Source: a virus (Duplodnaviria > Heunggongvirae > Uroviricota > Caudoviricetes). Taken from it: a DNA stretch of 7,153 bases. Of this stretch, positions 1 to 7,153 are shown one piece after another (within the stretch, counting starts at the first letter, position 1; every line of letters begins with the position of its first letter). The stretch lies in IMG/VR virus record IMGVR_UViG_2657245112_000033; one strand, written 5' to 3'. The notes beneath the pieces are model-generated. The model was given only the letters and a program-made list of their open reading frames with translations, had not been told where the DNA came from and ran no database searches. A program made the position numbers and the translations under genes.

Positions 1-162
1 TAGCTATAAATACATCTAAATACCTATATCCCTTCCCTTATGGCTAGATTGCGAGAAGTGCTTAACGCGATTTTCAGCGCCCCCCGATCTGGAAAATCCA
101 GAATCCCCAAATATCAGCAAGGAATTTTCTTGCGTAATCAACATCGTTTTTACCTATTAAAT

Positions 163-189
163 CATTACACAGAAAGCCTTTCTGTAATG
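163..189. repeat. Near-palindromic site carrying the ATTACACAG motif (ATTACACAGAAAG-c-CTTTCTGTAAT)
   Basis: 12-bp arms are reverse complements apart from one bulged base. The left arm contains the same ATTACACAG motif that recurs through 505-1900. Confidence 0.6.
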
Positions 190-442
190 TCTCTCACTAA
201 ACTTTCACTAAACACGAGAATGATCGGTTTTATGTCGGATCAGATGCTAGAAACAGCACCACGTCTCACAAGGGCTGTAAGCGATGAAACCAGTGTTTAT
301 GCGGGTGCAGGTCAAAATATAGGCCAAAATCCATTTAACATAATAATCGTAATATGCACTAAGGAACACATAGAACGCCTTGAGTTGATGTATCAGGGGA
401 AAAGTGATGGATTTTTTACGTAGGAGCACGAGAGGGCTTCTG

Positions 443-470
443 TTGACTTTTGTGTGCTATGAAATATAAT
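443..470 (+). promoter_or_regulatory. Sigma70-like promoter, TTGACT-16 bp-TATAAT
   Basis: TTGACT at 443-448 and a perfect TATAAT at 465-470 with a 16-bp spacer. It points rightward into the repeat region, where no ORF of 60 aa or more follows. Confidence 0.5.
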
Positions 471-504
471 TAAAAGTTTTTTGTTTTTATCGTGTGATGT
501 AGTG

Positions 505-951
505 GATTACACAGGGGAATAGATTAAATGGTGTTCTGTTTATACAGGTTTATTTGTTAGATCAACAATTTGGCATTTCTAAACAGATGTTTGAACGTTG
601 CCAAATGTCTTGACAACACAAGAAAAGGGCTTGCTATGCCACGCATTACACGAAATAAGGCTGTAAAAACAAAATAAATTTTAAAATTTGCACAAACAAG
701 AAAACTCATTAAGAAACAAGCAGAACAATTTTTAGCCAACAATTTCTGATGGTGCTCTGTAAGCCGCATTACACAAGGATTTGCGAAAGTGATGTAAAAG
801 TGAAGAAAGTAAGAATTGAACTTTTAAGCTACTTTTTTCATTGAATTTTTAGTATGGAATTACACAGGAATAAGTTAGGGATATTCTATGATTTACACAG
901 GGAATATAGGGGGGATTATGGCACACACATAGAAAGGCATTACACAGAGTG
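505..951 (+). repeat. Dispersed direct copies of the ATTACACAG(G)RAATA motif (6 copies)
   Basis: Copies at 505-522 (gattacacaggggaatag), 644-660, 767-780, 858-874 (aattacacaggaataag), 891-910 (atttacacagggaatatagg) and 938-951. All share the TTACAC core in the same orientation. Confidence 0.75.
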
Positions 952-966
952 CTATGTGACAAATGG

Positions 967-1072
967 ATGTAACGAGAGGTTACATTCAGCTATCTGAAAT
1001 GCTCTTTGTAAGAAAGTTGGTAGTAACGATATGTTACATAGACTAATTATTGAATGTAACGATATTACACAT
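967..1072. promoter_or_regulatory. Three tandem inverted-repeat operator-like sites (ATGTAAC-N5-GTTACAT)
   Basis: 967-985 atgtaac-gagag-gttacat (perfect 7-bp arms); 1021-1040 tagtaac-gatat-gttacat; 1054-1072 atgtaac-gatat-tacacat; plus a half-site at 1086-1095. The arm sequence GTTACAY is the TTACAC-family core. Confidence 0.55.
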
Positions 1073-1097
1073 CGGAAGATGATTGAATGTAACGGTA

Positions 1098-1138
1098 GCT
1101 CACAGTGAGCTAGGGGTAGGTCATAGTGAACTACCCCC
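1098..1138. repeat. 13-bp perfect palindrome GCTCACAGTGAGC plus about 1.5 units of the 22-bp iteron family
   Basis: gctcacagtgagc at 1098-1110 is its own reverse complement. It is followed by taggggta-ggtcatagtgaactac-ccccc, which matches the unit repeated at 1355-1436; ggggtag and ctacccc form a 7-bp inverted repeat. Confidence 0.7.
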
Positions 1139-1146
1139 ACAGAATT

Positions 1147-1198
1147 CTGTTACCCCTATCAAGTCTGATACCCCTATCAAAACTGATACCCGATAAGA
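1147..1198 (+). repeat. Three tandem 18-bp repeats (CTGWTACCCCTATCAA)
   Basis: ctgttacccctatcaag (1147-1163), ctgatacccctatcaa (1165-1180), ctgatacccgataag (1183-1197, degenerate); period 18 bp. Confidence 0.7.
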
Positions 1199-1208
1199 AT
1201 AAATAACA

Positions 1209-1309
1209 CCTAGGAAATGATTTCCGATCTATTTAGGAAGTAACCTAGGAAGTGGTTTCCTACCTACTTAGGAAATGAGTTCCTACCTACCTAGGAAATG
1301 AGTTCCACC
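1209..1309 (+). repeat. Four to five direct copies of a 15-bp motif TAGGAARTGRKTTCC, each with an internal GGAA-N5-TTCC inverted repeat
   Basis: Copies at 1211-1225, 1246-1260, 1269-1283 and 1292-1306 (the last two identical), plus a degenerate copy at 1234-1245; spacing mostly 23 bp. The architecture resembles plasmid centromere or iteron arrays. Confidence 0.7.
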
Positions 1310-1331
1310 AATACTATAATTAAATAATATA

Positions 1332-1354
1332 AATAATATTCTTTATACTATATA
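1332..1354 (+). repeat. 23-bp perfect direct repeat, copy 1 (aataatattctttatactatata), left of the iteron array
   Basis: Identical to 1482-1504. AT-rich and contains a TATACT -10-like hexamer. Confidence 0.85.
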
Positions 1355-1436
1355 GGTCACTGTGACCTAGGGGGTAGGTCATAGTGAGCTAGGGGGTAGG
1401 TCATAGTGAGCTAGGGGGTAGGTCACTGTGAACTAC
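1355..1436 (+). repeat. 22-bp tandem iterons, about 3.7 copies (GGTCAYWGTGASCTAGGGGGTA)
   Basis: Units at 1355-1376, 1377-1398 and 1399-1420 (the last two identical), plus a truncated unit at 1421-1436. The first unit contains the perfect 13-bp palindrome ggtcactgtgacc. AT-rich tracts lie on both sides. Confidence 0.85.
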
Positions 1437-1509: not shown

Positions 1510-1930
1510 GATCTTTTGCCTTCCGGCGTTAGCTTCACTCTCTGGCAAGCAGCCTTACTCCGCTACCTTTCGGGCTTCGTGGCTGGCCCGTTCCGCTCAC
1601 ACCGAAAGCAAAGCGTTACTTTCTTCGTGTAACTATCGTGGCGGTAACGCCCACGAAGAAATACTATTGCGCTGTGCGCAGAAGAGTAATCACCTAACCA
1701 ATCATACTGATTGCTTATGTGTAACTCTCTACCTCTTAATTCCACTTCCTACATTTAATAACTCTCGTTATTCTCTGTAGTTGTGTAATTACTCGAAGAG
1801 AGCGGCTAAAGCTCAATTACACTCTGCTTTCCTCGTGTAATTTCACTAAGCCTCAATACAATTTCACTTCCTACATTCTGTAGTCGTGTAATTGTTTTCG
1901 GTGGAAAAGCCAGAGGCGACACCGAAAGAG
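1510..1930. other. GC-rich island with dense hairpin potential; candidate structured RNA or single-strand DNA initiation element
   Basis: Visibly more GC-rich than its AT-rich flanks. Predicted stem-loops: 1621-1660 (outer ttcttcg/cgaagaa around a GC stem capped by a GUAA tetraloop), 1668-1680 (tgcgc-tgt-gcgca), 1749-1780 (ctaca...tgtag enclosing aataac-tctc-gttatt) and a shorter paralogous module at 1862-1893. The 7-mer ctctggc (1540-1546) is complementary to gccagag (1909-1915), and caccgaaag occurs at both ends (1600-1608, 1920-1928). Inverted TTACAC copies lie at 1626-1633, 1717-1725, 1782-1790, 1834-1843 and 1885-1893. Confidence 0.35.
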
Positions 1931-2515: not shown

Positions 2516-2544
2516 TTGACAAATGTTTCTTTATATGTAATAAT
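2516..2544 (+). promoter_or_regulatory. Sigma70-like promoter with extended -10 (TTGACA-17 bp-TGt-AATAAT), probable promoter of the 2656-4950 operon
   Basis: TTGACA at 2516-2521, TG at 2536-2537, AATAAT at 2539-2544. The leader downstream contains a short hairpin (aagcc-gtca-ggctt, 2603-2616) and a T-run at 2625-2635 before the first ribosome-binding site. Confidence 0.55.
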
Positions 2545-2655
2545 AGGTATTAGAGGGACAGAAAAACATTCTTCTCTAAATAATCAAAATCAATGCACTT
2601 TGAAGCCGTCAGGCTTGCAAGGTGTTTTTTCTTTTAACTGAATAAGGAGTTTTTT

Positions 2656-2863: not shown

Positions 2864-3034
2864 ATGAGCGAAACTACAGAAAAGAAAAGACAACCACGCA
2901 CTTGCTTTCATATTCCTGATGAAGTATTTCAGGTGTTATTTAAAGAAGCCAGAAGTAGACGGATCACTGTCACAGATTACATTCTTGATATGTTGAAAAG
3001 AGAGGCTGAAACACTCTCAAATAAAAGCAAGTGA
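2864..3034 (+). CDS. Ribbon-helix-helix-like (CopG/Arc-type) small DNA-binding protein, about 56 aa
   Basis: The track ORF is 2819-3034, but the ATG at 2864 has an AAGGAG site (2852-2857) and lies after the upstream stop (2842-2844), while 2819 has none. The segment RTCFHIPDEVFQVLFKEARSRRITVTDYILDMLKRE fits a strand-helix-helix pattern. Confidence 0.5.
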   Translation: MSETTEKKRQPRTCFHIPDEVFQVLFKEARSRRITVTDYILDMLKREAETLSNKSK

Positions 3035-3087
3035 TTTTTATCACCATAGTAGCGCCATAGAGCGTGATTACATCAAGGAGATTTTTA

Positions 3088-3780
3088 ATGATTAACCAAC
3101 TAACTTTTACAAAACACTATGACACGTTTGATAATGTATCAAAGATTTATTCTGATAAATTCCCTCAAGGAAAAGATTTAGATCTATTACATATTGTGCT
3201 TTATTTTCGATTCCTTAGTTATCAGGAAAACAACCTTAATTGTTATGAAAGTCACGAAACATTAGCTAAGATTTTTAAGTCTTCAGCGTCAACAATTAAA
3301 CGTAAGATAAACGATCTTAAAGAGATGGGATTATTAGAAACATCCCCACATCCTGATCCGTATATTTCATCTTTGATTTACAATGCTCTCCCTCTCACAG
3401 ATGCACATATTACTCCCCCAGGAGAATCATCACTCTCTGATCTTTCTGAGGCAGAAGAAGCACAGGAACAACCTAAAGGCCATAAACAGCCTTCTTTTGA
3501 TGTTCTTGATGATGATTGGGATACGCCTTTACCGTGGGAGACGGAAGAAACACCTGTTTCATCAAGTGAAAAGGTAGCTAATGATAATGAGGAGGATGTG
3601 TTAAAGAATTTTGCCTCTCTTATTATCAAGCAGAAGAATACTAGAACAGGAGGAGCATCATTTATAGAATTTGCAACATCGTTAGCCTATAAGCACAGGT
3701 TAAAGCTACCAAATGGTATTGAGGCATATTTTGCTAAGAAACATCCCAAAGTATACGAAGACTTTGATATTCCATTTTAA
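3088..3780 (+). CDS. Winged-HTH-like DNA-binding protein with acidic C-terminal region ending in an SSB-tail-like DFDIPF; possible replication initiator or organiser
   Basis: The track ORF starts at GTG 3064; the in-frame ATG at 3088 has AAGGAG at 3075-3080 with a 7-nt spacer. The N-terminal part (LHIVLYFRFLSYQENNLNCYESHETLAKIFKSSASTIKRKINDLKEMGLLE) fits a winged-HTH pattern. The C-terminal half is acidic (DDDWDTPLPWETEE) and the last residues are EDFDIPF. Confidence 0.7.
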   Translation: MINQLTFTKHYDTFDNVSKIYSDKFPQGKDLDLLHIVLYFRFLSYQENNLNCYESHETLAKIFKSSASTIKRKINDLKEMGLLETSPHPDPYISSLIYNALPLTDAHITPPGESSLSDLSEAEEAQEQPKGHKQPSFDVLDDDWDTPLPWETEETPVSSSEKVANDNEEDVLKNFASLIIKQKNTRTGGASFIEFATSLAYKHRLKLPNGIEAYFAKKHPKVYEDFDIPF

Positions 3781-3791
3781 TAAGGAGGGTT

Positions 3792-4070
3792 ATGATTCAA
3801 TATTTAGTAAAAAATCAAGTAGACAGAATTCAGTGTAACGACACAGGAAAACGCATCTACGAAACACTTGCTTACCTCTATAAAGGAAAGCCAACACCGC
3901 TAAAATATAGCGATGTGTTACATCGAGCAGGGTGCTCTGAAGATGGTTTAAAATTCTGGCTGAAACAGCTATCAAACTTCGGTGTTATAGAAATTAAAGA
4001 ATTATCTTTCTCTACATTCAATCTCAAAAGACTAGATAAAGAAATAGAATTCATCTATTCCACTCTCTAA
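3792..4070 (+). CDS. Small winged-HTH-like protein (92 aa)
   Basis: ATG at 3792 preceded by AAGGAGGG (3782-3789), 11 nt after the upstream stop. The segment IYETLAYLY...KYSDVLHRAGCSEDGLKFWLKQLSNFGVIEI follows the same helix-turn-wing pattern as the upstream protein. Confidence 0.65.
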   Translation: MIQYLVKNQVDRIQCNDTGKRIYETLAYLYKGKPTPLKYSDVLHRAGCSEDGLKFWLKQLSNFGVIEIKELSFSTFNLKRLDKEIEFIYSTL

Positions 4071-4979: not shown

Positions 4980-5008
4980 TTGACATTCCATCTATTATAT
5001 GTTAATAT
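4980..5008 (+). promoter_or_regulatory. Sigma70-like promoter with extended -10 (TTGACA-17 bp-TGt-TAATAT)
   Basis: TTGACA at 4980-4985, TG at 5000-5001, TAATAT at 5003-5008. Same architecture as the promoter at 2516-2544. Confidence 0.5.
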
Positions 5009-5176: not shown

Positions 5177-5205
5177 ATAGGGTAATTACATAGGTACAAG
5201 TTAAT

Positions 5206-5238
5206 AAAAGGCGGCTCTAAATGCTGCCTTTTATTTTG
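5206..5238. terminator. Rho-independent terminator hairpin, possibly bidirectional
   Basis: aaaaggcggc (5206-5215), loop tctaaat, gctgcctttt (5223-5232): about a 10-bp stem with one G-U pair, followed by ttttatttt. The A-run upstream gives a matching U-run on the opposite strand. Confidence 0.6.
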
Positions 5239-5299
5239 CCCGTTATGCAACTTAAAAGTTGTATTTCTTACTTTAAACAAGGTAACAAGGTTTATATAA

Positions 5300-5512: not shown

Positions 5513-5871
5513 TTATTGATTTAGACACTCTGTTTCCAGTTCGAAAGACTTTCACAGATATTGTAAGTTATTGTACTGATCCGTTTGCCTCTGTAGAAAG
5601 CAAGGTTTTTGCTTCTCTTCCTGCTGATGTTGAATGCGGCGACTTGATCACCAGCACTGGCGCTAAATATGTATCAGGAGATGATATCTATGTTGTTATG
5701 AGTGAATTTGTAACGGCTGGAGAAAACAAACCTGTAGATGTTTTACGTAGCAATGCTGGGCTTGTATGCATCAAAGCTGATGCGCTGAATGCTGTAAGTG
5801 AAGCAGCAAAAACAGCATTAATTAAAAAAGGCTTCCAGCTTGAAGGGTTCCATTCTGTTTTCACTTCTTAA
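5509..5871 (+). CDS. Putative head decoration or accessory head protein (120 aa), assigned by position only
   Basis: AAGGAG at 5495-5500, ATG at 5509. It sits immediately upstream of the major capsid gene, where lambda has gpD, but I see no clear sequence similarity to gpD. Confidence 0.55.
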   Translation: MIIDLDTLFPVRKTFTDIVSYCTDPFASVESKVFASLPADVECGDLITSTGAKYVSGDDIYVVMSEFVTAGENKPVDVLRSNAGLVCIKADALNAVSEAAKTALIKKGFQLEGFHSVFTS

Positions 5872-6918: not shown

Positions 6919-6958
6919 TATTTAACGTGTAATAGAGGCGTGGCGCTGAGAGATCCCC

Positions 6959-7153
6959 TCATAATTTCCCCAAAGCGTAACCATGTGTGAATAAATTTTG
7001 AGCTAGTAGGGTTGCAGCCACGAGTAAGTCTTCCCTTGTTATTGTGTAGCCAGAATGCCGCAAAACTTCCATGCCTAAGCGAACTGTTGAGAGTACGTTT
7101 CGATTTCTGACTGTGTTAGCCTGGAAGTGCTTGTCCCAACCTTGTTTCTGAGC
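6959..7153 (-). CDS. Possible 3' end of a convergent gene running off the window (C-terminal 64 codons, unknown function)
   Basis: The minus-strand frame entering at 7153 is open for 64 codons (...GMEVLRHSGYTITREDLLVAATLLAQNLFTHGYALGKL) and stops at 6959-6961. It is absent from the track because no Met start lies in the window. The composition is protein-like, but a chance open frame is not excluded. Confidence 0.3.
   Translation of the reverse strand, partial: AQKQGWDKHFQANTVRNRNVLSTVRLGMEVLRHSGYTITREDLLVAATLLAQNLFTHGYALGKL

Follow-up and report, generated by a model that had tools for sequence, protein, structure and literature searches.

A near-consensus bacterial promoter that reads into several hundred nucleotides of repeat-rich DNA raises the question of whether promoter and repeats form one functional unit. 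Such an arrangement lies at 443-960 of the 7,153-nt stretch of viral DNA analysed here (the window; IMG/VR record IMGVR_UViG_2657245112_000033), for which a preliminary description had proposed either a non-coding transcript or transcription through an origin-like region. Here, we show that 443-960 straddles the joint of two separable non-coding modules, an optional cassette that carries the promoter and an array of short sites. Our reading of the whole, in which the array would be a DNA-level element, the promoter an optional addition and their carrier a probable satellite of phi92-like phages, is in our judgement evenly poised between right and wrong. Taken alone, the promoter is a minor and optional feature. 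Its surroundings are more interesting, comprising an apparently undescribed satellite family, mimicry of a presumed helper phage and the site array itself, a conserved and strongly enriched motif array bracketing a predicted replication origin that came to light through the follow-up of the promoter.

An island with a variable slot

The window is 100% identical to an E. coli O111:H11 chromosome. In uninterrupted copies it belongs to an island of 12.3 kb with tRNA-Thr (thrW) on one side and a tyrosine integrase on the other; window positions 6945-7153 are an IS10/ISVsa5 insertion. A control region of about 3.7 kb comes first and contains no conserved gene except one 52-aa ORF. Next come a promoter with its leader terminator and two small genes; these are followed by rep, which encodes a winged-helix Rep-like initiator (HTH_36, phrog_270), by the gene for a 92-aa protein and by several small ORFs. 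Genes for a lambda-E family major capsid protein, a tape-measure-like protein and a Dit-like tail protein complete the series. A search of 5426 complete E. coli genomes found 80% or more of the window in 245. Three features make up its left end:

39-116, minus strand: 78-bp copy of the right boundary of a phi92-like direct terminal repeat (DTR), phi92 343/344 corresponding to window 62/63; candidate packaging or cleavage signal
117-499, no strand assigned: optional 383-bp non-coding cassette in a variable slot, with breakpoints at 116/117 and 499/500
443-470, plus strand: sigma-70-type promoter-like site TTGACT-16-TATAAT, matching the consensus at 11 of 12 positions; predicted start at about 477

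Comparison with related loci shows that both breakpoints of the cassette are sharp (L006-L008, L011, L012 and L016), and the promoter lies within the final 57 bp. The cassette was found in 334 of the 5426 E. coli genomes, always as a single copy and at least 95% identical, an identity that could reflect either youth or function; frameshifting indels are present within it. A scan of metagenomes with a cassette 23-mer recovered it solely in this island context, all compared contigs matching the island. One 13.2-kb metagenome contig runs from attL to attR of the island without terminal overlap and is thus uninformative on packaged ends. Elsewhere the same slot holds other cargo. In thiM islands and other thrW islands it is occupied by a 179-aa serine recombinase that brings repeated sites of its own, and tRNA-Gly islands have a 192-aa tyrosine recombinase there; these recombinase genes are all transcribed away from the array.

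Whether promoter and motif array are conserved together had been put forward as a check on their connection, and they are not. The array block is present in 563 of the 5426 genomes (80-100% identity) against 334 for the cassette, so about 40% of array-bearing genomes do without the cassette, and relatives carry a recombinase gene in its slot. Nor do cassette-less relatives have a comparable plus-strand promoter upstream of the array: L027 has none of at least 9/12, and L029 and L007 have only weak matches of 9/12. Judged by this distribution, the promoter is an optional, lineage-specific add-on that lies outside the conserved machinery.

The promoter-like site and the transcript it would make

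The preliminary description gave the position and strand of TTGACT-16-TATAAT exactly, and with a 16-nt spacer the hexamers have the sigma-70 form (TTGACA/TATAAT-like, spacer of 16-18 nt). Its appraisal as a near-ideal promoter applies to the hexamers only. The site has no TG extension before the -10 and no UP-like element, the upstream 25 nt (gtaggagcacgagagggcttctg) being G+C-rich, and matches of at least 11/12 arise by chance at a mean of 0.33 per window (300 dinucleotide shuffles), with two observed (443-470 and 2516-2544). The site is real as sequence, and a match of this quality does not by itself exceed chance. In a set of 31 distinct cassette sequences the -35 is unchanged in 28, three carrying singleton changes, and the -10 reads TATAAT in 25 and CATAAT in six, which amounts to three of six variable positions in the -35 and one of six in the -10. 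Cassette positions 201-300 have only 5% variable sites, and the promoter segment is more variable; across the 31 sequences the hexamers are no less variable than the remainder of the cassette and show no conservation above its background.

On its hexamers the promoter is rather probably active in vivo, and a role of its transcript in replication is doubtful. The site may also be inert or vestigial, which for the promoter itself is nearly as likely. AT-rich horizontally acquired DNA is full of promoter-like sites, and 443-470 could be a fortuitous one or, for example, the orphaned promoter of a cargo gene lost from the variable slot, with no role at all. The chance expectation given above would suit such an origin, as would a slot that is a cargo hotspot for serine and tyrosine recombinases in relatives, the tolerated hexamer variants and the G+C-rich upstream flank without an UP element. 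We regard a site with no role as unlikely, however, in view of the -35 and TATAAT hexamers kept in 28 and 25 of the 31 distinct sequences and of the near-identity of the cassette across 334 genomes, even though the latter may mean youth as well as function.

Downstream of the promoter, the earlier observation of only very short plus-strand ORFs for about 500 nt held. The sole plus-strand ORF of at least 40 aa within 471-1000 is at 854-997 (47 aa), and its ATG is absent in L006, L018 and L027. PGAP annotates no gene from the left end of the island to the first gene at 2656, in the source genome and in relatives alike; a conserved protein-coding gene directly downstream, which had been named as one finding that would speak against the proposal, was thus not found. 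The ORF at 40-423, previously noted just upstream, does exist as an open frame. It is very probably not a gene, given that it is frameshifted in relatives L021 and L014 and not annotated, has no Pfam or PHROG match, and consists in its first 80 nt of a copy of phage genome-end sequence. A minus-strand ORF at 247-429 was likewise rejected as a gene, since relatives have frame-shifting indels inside it.

The hairpin with a T-run at 420-452 that was flagged by a scan folds no better than shuffles (z = 0.0), and there is no recognisable intrinsic terminator between the 443 promoter and the origin, nor any before 2595. The plus strand has more G than C over 400-1200, by inference making the RNA a poor Rho substrate. 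The predicted transcript shows no signal of a structured RNA. Folding of 477-960 is not significant on either strand (z = -1.8 for plus, -0.9 for minus), and RNAalifold on the conserved core of eight lineages found no covariation, with 0 compensatory pairs among 30 predicted pairs. A scan of the window with Rfam 15 (E <= 1) returned one chance-level match (E = 0.69), outside the region, and a tRNA scan of the window returned none. Duplex formation by a putative transcript of 477-1000 reached z of -0.5 to -1.5 with the leader, the rep initiation region or the G+C-rich block, and over all targets, the capsid-operon leader among them, z was between -1.5 and +0.7.

These results bear directly on the opening question. 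Promoter and array would be one unit if transcription from 443 were required for origin activation, in the manner of pR and ori-lambda, or if the repeat region encoded a functional non-coding RNA. Such a unit would explain a near-consensus promoter aimed at the origin, a path without a recognisable intrinsic terminator before 2595, a downstream region that is non-coding in all relatives and a G>C skew that would disfavour Rho; the lack of a DnaA box in 1-2650 suggests in addition that origin opening may need other help. It is harder to square with the roughly 40% of array genomes that have no cassette, the cassette-less relatives also having no comparable plus-strand promoter, with hexamers that are not preferentially conserved, and with the absence of an RNA-structure signal and of covariation. 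We consider a single unit improbable, and continue with the two modules as separable.

The ATTRCAC array, the origin and candidate binders

The remaining features of the region, from the array to the operon behind it, are as follows:

500-1075 (end approximate), plus strand at all sites: left arm of the ATTRCAC array, with sites at 506, 645, 768, 859, 892 (TTTACAC), 939 and 1064
722-900, plus strand: most conserved array core, with the invariant 18-mer ATGTAAAAGTGAAGAAAG (792-809) and sites 768 and 859
1092-1435, plus strand: Rep-linked iterons GGGGTAGGTCATAGTGAGCTA of 21/22 bp, two adjacent copies at 1092-1133 and three at 1371-1435 with 22-bp spacing
1627-1892, minus strand: right arm of the array, with ATTACAC at 1783, 1835 and 1886, GTTACAC at 1627 and 1719, and one plus-strand copy at 1816
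2516-2544, plus strand: operon promoter TTGACA-17-AATAAT with TG, 11/12
2595-2636, plus strand: intrinsic leader terminator with a 13-bp stem, 4-nt loop and U6 run (fold of 2551-2655)
3792-4070, plus strand: p92, a 92-aa winged-helix protein encoded directly after rep; AlphaFold2 pLDDT 82

Six copies of ATTACACAG had been reported in 443-960. The repeat is real, but only three copies are exact 9-mers (506, 859 and 939), two having one mismatch (768 and 892) and one having two (645, ATTACACGA), and the array extends past that interval. The shared core is the 7-mer ATTACAC, or more generally ATTRCAC. ATTACAC occurs 12 times in the window against 0.96 +/- 0.94 expected, a count that none of 200 shuffles reached, and is thus repeated well beyond chance. 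Eleven of the 12 copies fall in 164-1892, and ATTRCAC has zero copies in 4.3 kb of coding sequence. Left of the origin there are seven or eight plus-strand copies, including one further site inside the cassette, at 164; ATTACAC itself occurs seven times on the plus strand within 164-1070. Right of the origin there are three to five minus-strand copies, the right arm lying inside a G+C-richer block (1508-1930). The spacing of array sites, 33-139 bp, is irregular and not helically phased.

Conservation of the array core was read from an alignment of eight lineages at three integration sites, and the most distant E. coli matches begin at 722-737. In the non-coding DNA of five lineages, again covering three integration sites, ATTRCAC is enriched to a count reached by at most 1 of 300 shuffles in each. 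Lineages with unalignable flanks still have 5-7 ATTRCAC copies in the non-coding region and keep the polarity of the array, plus-strand copies predominating on the left and the right-block copies being on the minus strand. The right block of L005, L027 and L029 cannot be aligned, yet it has one or two inverted ATTGCAC copies. Islands without the promoter cassette keep both arms. A scan of the genome collection with an invariant 19-mer gave, besides one E. coli contig, chance matches in unrelated taxa only, and Blast of three of the 19-mer matches (L031, L032 and L035) found no other similarity to the window. From this pattern of enrichment and conservation the array is likely a functional DNA-level element.

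Two further identifications of the motif were tried and rejected. Against a promoter or recurrent motif of the helper phage, ATTACAC was counted only 28 times over the two strands of the 146-kb Justusliebigvirus A150 genome, by rough estimate not an enrichment. In a by-eye comparison with consensus sequences, no Ter/Tus, TyrR, CpxR, OmpR, LexA or IHF site fits.

Between the two arms, the GGGGTAGGTCATAGTGAGCTA repeats at 1371-1435 have the dimensions of iterons (units of 17-22 bp, spacing of about 22 bp, an AT-rich neighbour). Other repeat families lie between the two iteron groups, and the repeats are flanked by AT-rich DNA and by a perfect 23-nt direct repeat (1332 and 1482). A change of Rep allele goes together with replacement or deletion of the iteron segment (L019, L020, L021, L016 and L006): loci whose Rep is 41-58% identical keep window 1-992 or 500-1037 at 96-97%, and about 1000-1460 is replaced. 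On this comparative evidence the GGGGTAGGTCATAGTGAGCTA repeats are a Rep-specific origin, and the Rep-iteron and AT-rich origin spans 1092-1507. The origin-like region suspected downstream of the promoter is thereby given a more definite form, and the promoter points at it. No match to the DnaA box TTATNCACA with at most one mismatch occurs in 1-2650.

Are the ATTACAC repeats then ordinary parts of this origin, either iterons for Rep or DnaA boxes? They are oriented and adjoin the AT-rich origin, as such parts would. Yet the array shows no co-variation with the Rep allele, being 96-97% identical where Rep is 41-58% identical, and it is the 21/22-bp repeats that swap with Rep instead. Units of 7-11 bp at a spacing of 33-139 bp also fall outside the range for iterons, and the DnaA box search found nothing. 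The lineages differ in addition in site flavour, one group having ATTACAC only and the other ATTGCAC on the right with a mixed left arm, and this flavour differs in L005, in which the N-terminal half of Rep (first 124 aa) is 96% identical. We hold ordinary origin parts to be extremely unlikely; as far as allele comparison can tell, the array is independent of the Rep allele and its sites are not for Rep.

The arms could instead act through RNA, as in P4 immunity, for which a constitutive promoter, a long untranslated leader and repeated complementary boxes are established. AUUACAC in the 443 transcript would then pair with inverted GUGUAAU 1.1-1.4 kb downstream, or with a processed small RNA, and cause termination or processing. 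Left copies on the plus strand and right copies on the minus strand are indeed complementary within one plus-strand transcript, and other lineages change the right copies to GTGCAAT and some left copies to ATTGCAC. The complementarity is only 7-9 nt, however, several copies have the same sense and irregular spacing, which fits a protein better, and islands without the promoter keep both arms. With no significant duplex (z -0.5 to -1.5) and no structural covariation, and with neither the conserved leader structure nor the extended complementary boxes of P4-type immunity detected, control by RNA is very unlikely.

We therefore return to the array as a DNA-level element, in which the ATTRCAC sites would be binding sites for a factor common to all these elements and other than Rep. 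Candidates were sought in the operon to the right. Its promoter has counterparts in L007, L027 and L029 (promoter-like matches of 10-11/12 at the position equivalent to 2516-2544), and the terminator at 2595-2636, between that promoter and the first gene, is kept in sequence in L005, L006, L027 and L029. The best candidate for binding the sites would be p92. Its model has as top Foldseek matches the CodY DNA-binding domain, ArsR, HlyU, MarR, TubR and PapI (prob ~1, TM 0.5-0.6), and its allele tracks site flavour in every locus having p92. The allele of p62 (2656-2844), a 62-aa protein with a confident three-helix model, no PDB structural neighbour and no family match, tracks flavour in 19 of 20 loci; flavour follows neither the alleles of Rep nor those of the RHH protein (2864-3034).

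Several observations temper the case for p92. The correlation with site flavour comes from two to three independent lineages only, and the whole right half of the island, including the structural module, has also diverged in the same lineages, so that the correlation could be linkage. The difference between ATTACAC and ATTGCAC is not a clean switch, and the thiM island L006 has a full array (seven plus-strand and three minus-strand copies) and no p92 gene. The binder could equally be a protein of the host or of the helper phage. We consider p92 a possible binder of ATTRCAC, tentatively proposed from its predicted fold and allele distribution, and treat it as a lead and not as a result.

If the sites are bound in this way, the two arms with their protein would enclose the origin and govern its firing, as happens through accessory sites and looping at plasmid origins or P4 ori/crr, and the array would probably control either origin firing or the coupling of the origin to packaging. 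The promoter could feed into this control in the lineages that have it. If host RNA polymerase uses 443-470, it would make an untranslated transcript that has the orientation of the array, crosses the origin and extends no further than the intrinsic terminator at 2595-2636. The passage of the polymerase could help to open the origin or displace bound protein, as an accessory, lineage-specific input.

Links to phi92-like phages and known satellites

The left end of the island ties it to a particular group of phages. Window 43-88 is 93.5% identical to phi92 318-363 on the opposite strand, and the annotated phi92 DTR is 1-343 (343 bp). In Klebsiella and Citrobacter relatives the similarity spans window 39-116. 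The boundary block matches 62 phage records, which are Stephanstirmvirinae in every record whose taxonomy was checked. Of the 13 thrW loci that have kept its 31-nt core, 12 share the core without change irrespective of the cassette that follows, and L016 differs at five positions. A search for the left DTR boundary of phi92 found no copy in the island, and one for a phage terminus found none in the tRNA-Gly island L029. Non-coding DNA that precedes the phi92 terminal repeat is matched over 22 nt at 2161-2182, with relative order and orientation agreeing with those of the boundary copy.

Further links lie in the genes. Among phages, homologues of the tape-measure-like protein are confined to the tape measures of Stephanstirmvirinae (134 records), and at their 5' ends the tape-measure and Dit-like genes have patches of about 90% nucleotide identity to Justusliebigvirus tail genes. 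A 42-nt stretch just upstream of rep, including its start codon, exactly matches the translation-initiation region of a Phapecoctavirus gene, and a 30-nt exact match inside rep is among the further links to phi92-like phages. The Rep protein itself has no match in phage genomes, and the island capsid protein reaches no more than 25% identity to the phage capsids of the collection.

The island also has the general make-up of a satellite: 12.3 kb in length, it has a tyrosine integrase, Rep with iterons and, as its only structural genes, those for the capsid, tape-measure-like and Dit-like proteins. To this are added features that match a presumed helper both in cis and in protein, namely the DTR-boundary copy, the tape-measure relationship, the patches of about 90% identity and the 42-nt copy. 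Carriage of the DTR-boundary copy makes a satellite of phi92-like phages probable, and with gene content and sequence mimicry as the two sources of evidence we infer that the island is likely a satellite of phi92-like (Stephanstirmvirinae) virulent myophages.

A more far-reaching proposal, which we advance tentatively, is that a widespread family of Stephanstirmvirinae satellites exists in E. coli and has its first recognised representative in the island, in which the 78-bp boundary copy would direct packaging, the copied initiation region would time rep, the ATTRCAC array with a small winged-helix protein would control the origin, and exchangeable cassettes with a strong promoter or a site-specific recombinase would tune that control. 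The searchable literature, which excludes subscription-only papers, holds no description of the island, its proteins or Stephanstirmvirinae satellites. The family is present in several percent of complete E. coli genomes and bears the marks expected of a satellite whose helpers are large virulent phages from phage-therapy collections (relatives of phi92 and phAPEC8). If the proposal is true, it offers an example, accessible to experiment, of mimicry of the packaging signal of a direct-terminal-repeat phage, and it bears on the prediction of host range and failure modes for therapeutic Stephanstirmvirinae phages.

Among known systems, ori-lambda is transcriptionally activated by rightward transcription from pR. 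As in the island, a sigma-70 promoter lies upstream of an initiator-iteron origin and reads towards or through it, the coding content of the transcript being irrelevant. The promoter of the island differs in three ways: around 40% of related elements do not have it, its distance to the nearest Rep iteron is about 620 nt, and its activity is a predicted one. P4 combines ori and crr with the RNA immunity leader PLE-CI. Like the island it is a satellite with its own initiator, with a short motif in direct and inverted copies at two places flanking or distant from the origin, and with a promoter followed by an untranslated leader. The two share no sequence or protein homology, no Pfam or PHROG matches to the P4 alpha primase-helicase, sid, psu or delta being found among the island proteins, and in the island the sites do not follow the Rep allele and no RNA-structure evidence was found.

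For the boundary copy, the closest parallel is the concatemer junction of T7, where plasmids bearing the junction are packaged by the phage. The island copies the right boundary only. In both cases a short cis sequence from a DTR boundary would direct a foreign replicon into the packaging of the helper, and the 78-bp block at 39-116 would be the analogue of the junction.

Portal, protease, adaptors and small terminase are parts of the head and packaging module of capsid-forming PICIs (cf-PICIs), and none has a Pfam or PHROG match among the island proteins. The resemblance to cf-PICIs is that of an E. coli satellite-type element that encodes its own major capsid protein. In the island, the capsid is the only head gene recognised and the tail genes are related to a virulent phage group, whereas cf-PICIs carry a full head and packaging module, according to a preprint (10.1101/2022.09.08.507074), and use temperate helpers (PMC12772148).

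The nearest comparison overall is with PLE of Vibrio cholerae, a 12-18 kb island that is a satellite of the virulent myophage ICP1 (PMC8096241, PMC10945586). Both elements are chromosomal, with an integrase, their own RepA-type initiator, an iteron origin and, for the island presumptively, a large virulent myophage as helper. They differ in host, no homology was detected between them, and the island has its own capsid gene, a tape-measure homologue and a copy of the DTR boundary of its presumed helper. If our reading is right, the island would be the E. coli counterpart of the Vibrio PLE/ICP1 system.

Repeat families and conserved blocks around the origin

Several distinct repeat families are stacked between window positions 960 and 1320, and a G+C-richer block adjoins the AT-rich origin.
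964-1095: TGTAACGA-N-GTTACA palindromes
1147-1197: three copies of GATACCCCTATCAA
1208-1310: four copies of CCTAGGAAATGAGTTCC
1508-1930: G+C-richer block
Each of these repeat families is amplified in relatives that carry other Rep types (the related locus L027, the thiM island L006 and the tRNA-Gly island L029), and iteron sets for different initiators seem to be pieced together, mosaic-like, in the origin region. The variants of the G+C-richer block found in other lineages are unalignable apart from islands such as CCGCTCACAMCGAA and TTGCGCTGTGCGC; the block may act as a single-strand initiation signal or form some other structured element. Further to the left, ATGTAAAAGTGAAGAAAG (792-809) shows no variation across eight lineages and three integration sites, with diverged flanks on either side.

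Where this island has the promoter cassette (window 117-499), other islands carry a small serine recombinase (PF00239, phrog_125 invertase) in the same slot, and tRNA-Gly islands a 192-aa tyrosine recombinase.
L007 (related locus) 599-1266: recombinase gene
L006 11334-12000: recombinase gene
L027 5194-5745: recombinase gene
L029 4879-5457: recombinase gene
In the intergenic DNA inspected in L006 and L007, the serine recombinase is accompanied by repeated CATTTGG sites.

Replication-operon leader and capsid module

Strong promoter-like sites precede both the replication operon and the capsid module, and the end of an insertion sequence lies just past the capsid gene.
2516-2655: segment with the operon promoter, TTGACA-17-AATAAT with TG
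4980-5008: TTGACA-17-TAATAT with TG, another strong promoter-like site, upstream of the capsid module
6945-7153: IS10/ISVsa5 end, inserted directly downstream of the capsid gene
Within about 50 nt after the operon promoter, and before the ribosome-binding site of the first gene, lies a strong intrinsic terminator (2595-2636) that is conserved in distant relatives. The replication operon looks attenuated and may need antitermination. A hairpin with a T-run (aaaggcggctctaaatgctgccttttatttt), seen by eye at about 5205-5240, also follows the promoter-like site at 4980-5008. The IS10/ISVsa5 insertion is limited to two O111:H11 genomes; the other copies of the island run on into tail genes. One metagenome contig (Ga0233370_1000059, 13,247 bp) matches the island end to end, attL through attR, with no other DNA, as would fit either an excised form or an assembly that broke at the att repeats.

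Sequences shared with phages

The left end of the window carries a copy of a phage terminal-repeat boundary.
39-116: 78-bp copy of the right-hand boundary of the direct terminal repeat (DTR, 343 bp) of phi92-like phages
Of the 13 thrW loci that keep its 31-nt core, 12 have it in identical form and one, the related locus L016, has five positions changed; the copy is a candidate packaging or cleavage signal. Collinear with it is a 22-nt patch at 2161-2182, which at 21 of 22 positions agrees with non-coding sequence preceding the right terminal repeat of phi92 (L003 2735-2756). Directly outside the boundary copy, tandem repeats of the ATAAATAG/ATAAATAC type (14940-15030 in L001, the sequence holding the window with its left flank) lie just left of window position 1 and extend into 1-30; a run resembling them is also present in L029, at about 5800-5830.

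Several near-perfect Fur-box-like palindromes (AATGATAATCATTATC) also occur in the terminal repeat of phi92 and in the sequence preceding it; none was seen by eye in the inspected parts of the island.
L002 (phi92 terminal region) 78-97: Fur-box-like palindrome
L002 270-295: Fur-box-like palindrome
L003 (phi92 terminal region) 2809-2880: Fur-box-like palindromes

Two exact identities to other phages lie at and in rep. Inside the gene, 30 nt (about 3392-3421) are identical to inny_184 of the Justusliebigvirus phage inny, with no similarity in the flanks and no homology at the protein level. Ahead of rep, 42 nt (3054-3095) are identical, with sharp edges, to a sequence of Phapecoctavirus Mt1B1_P17 that lies directly upstream of a 328-aa gene and includes its start codon; this suggests that translational or transcriptional control was copied.
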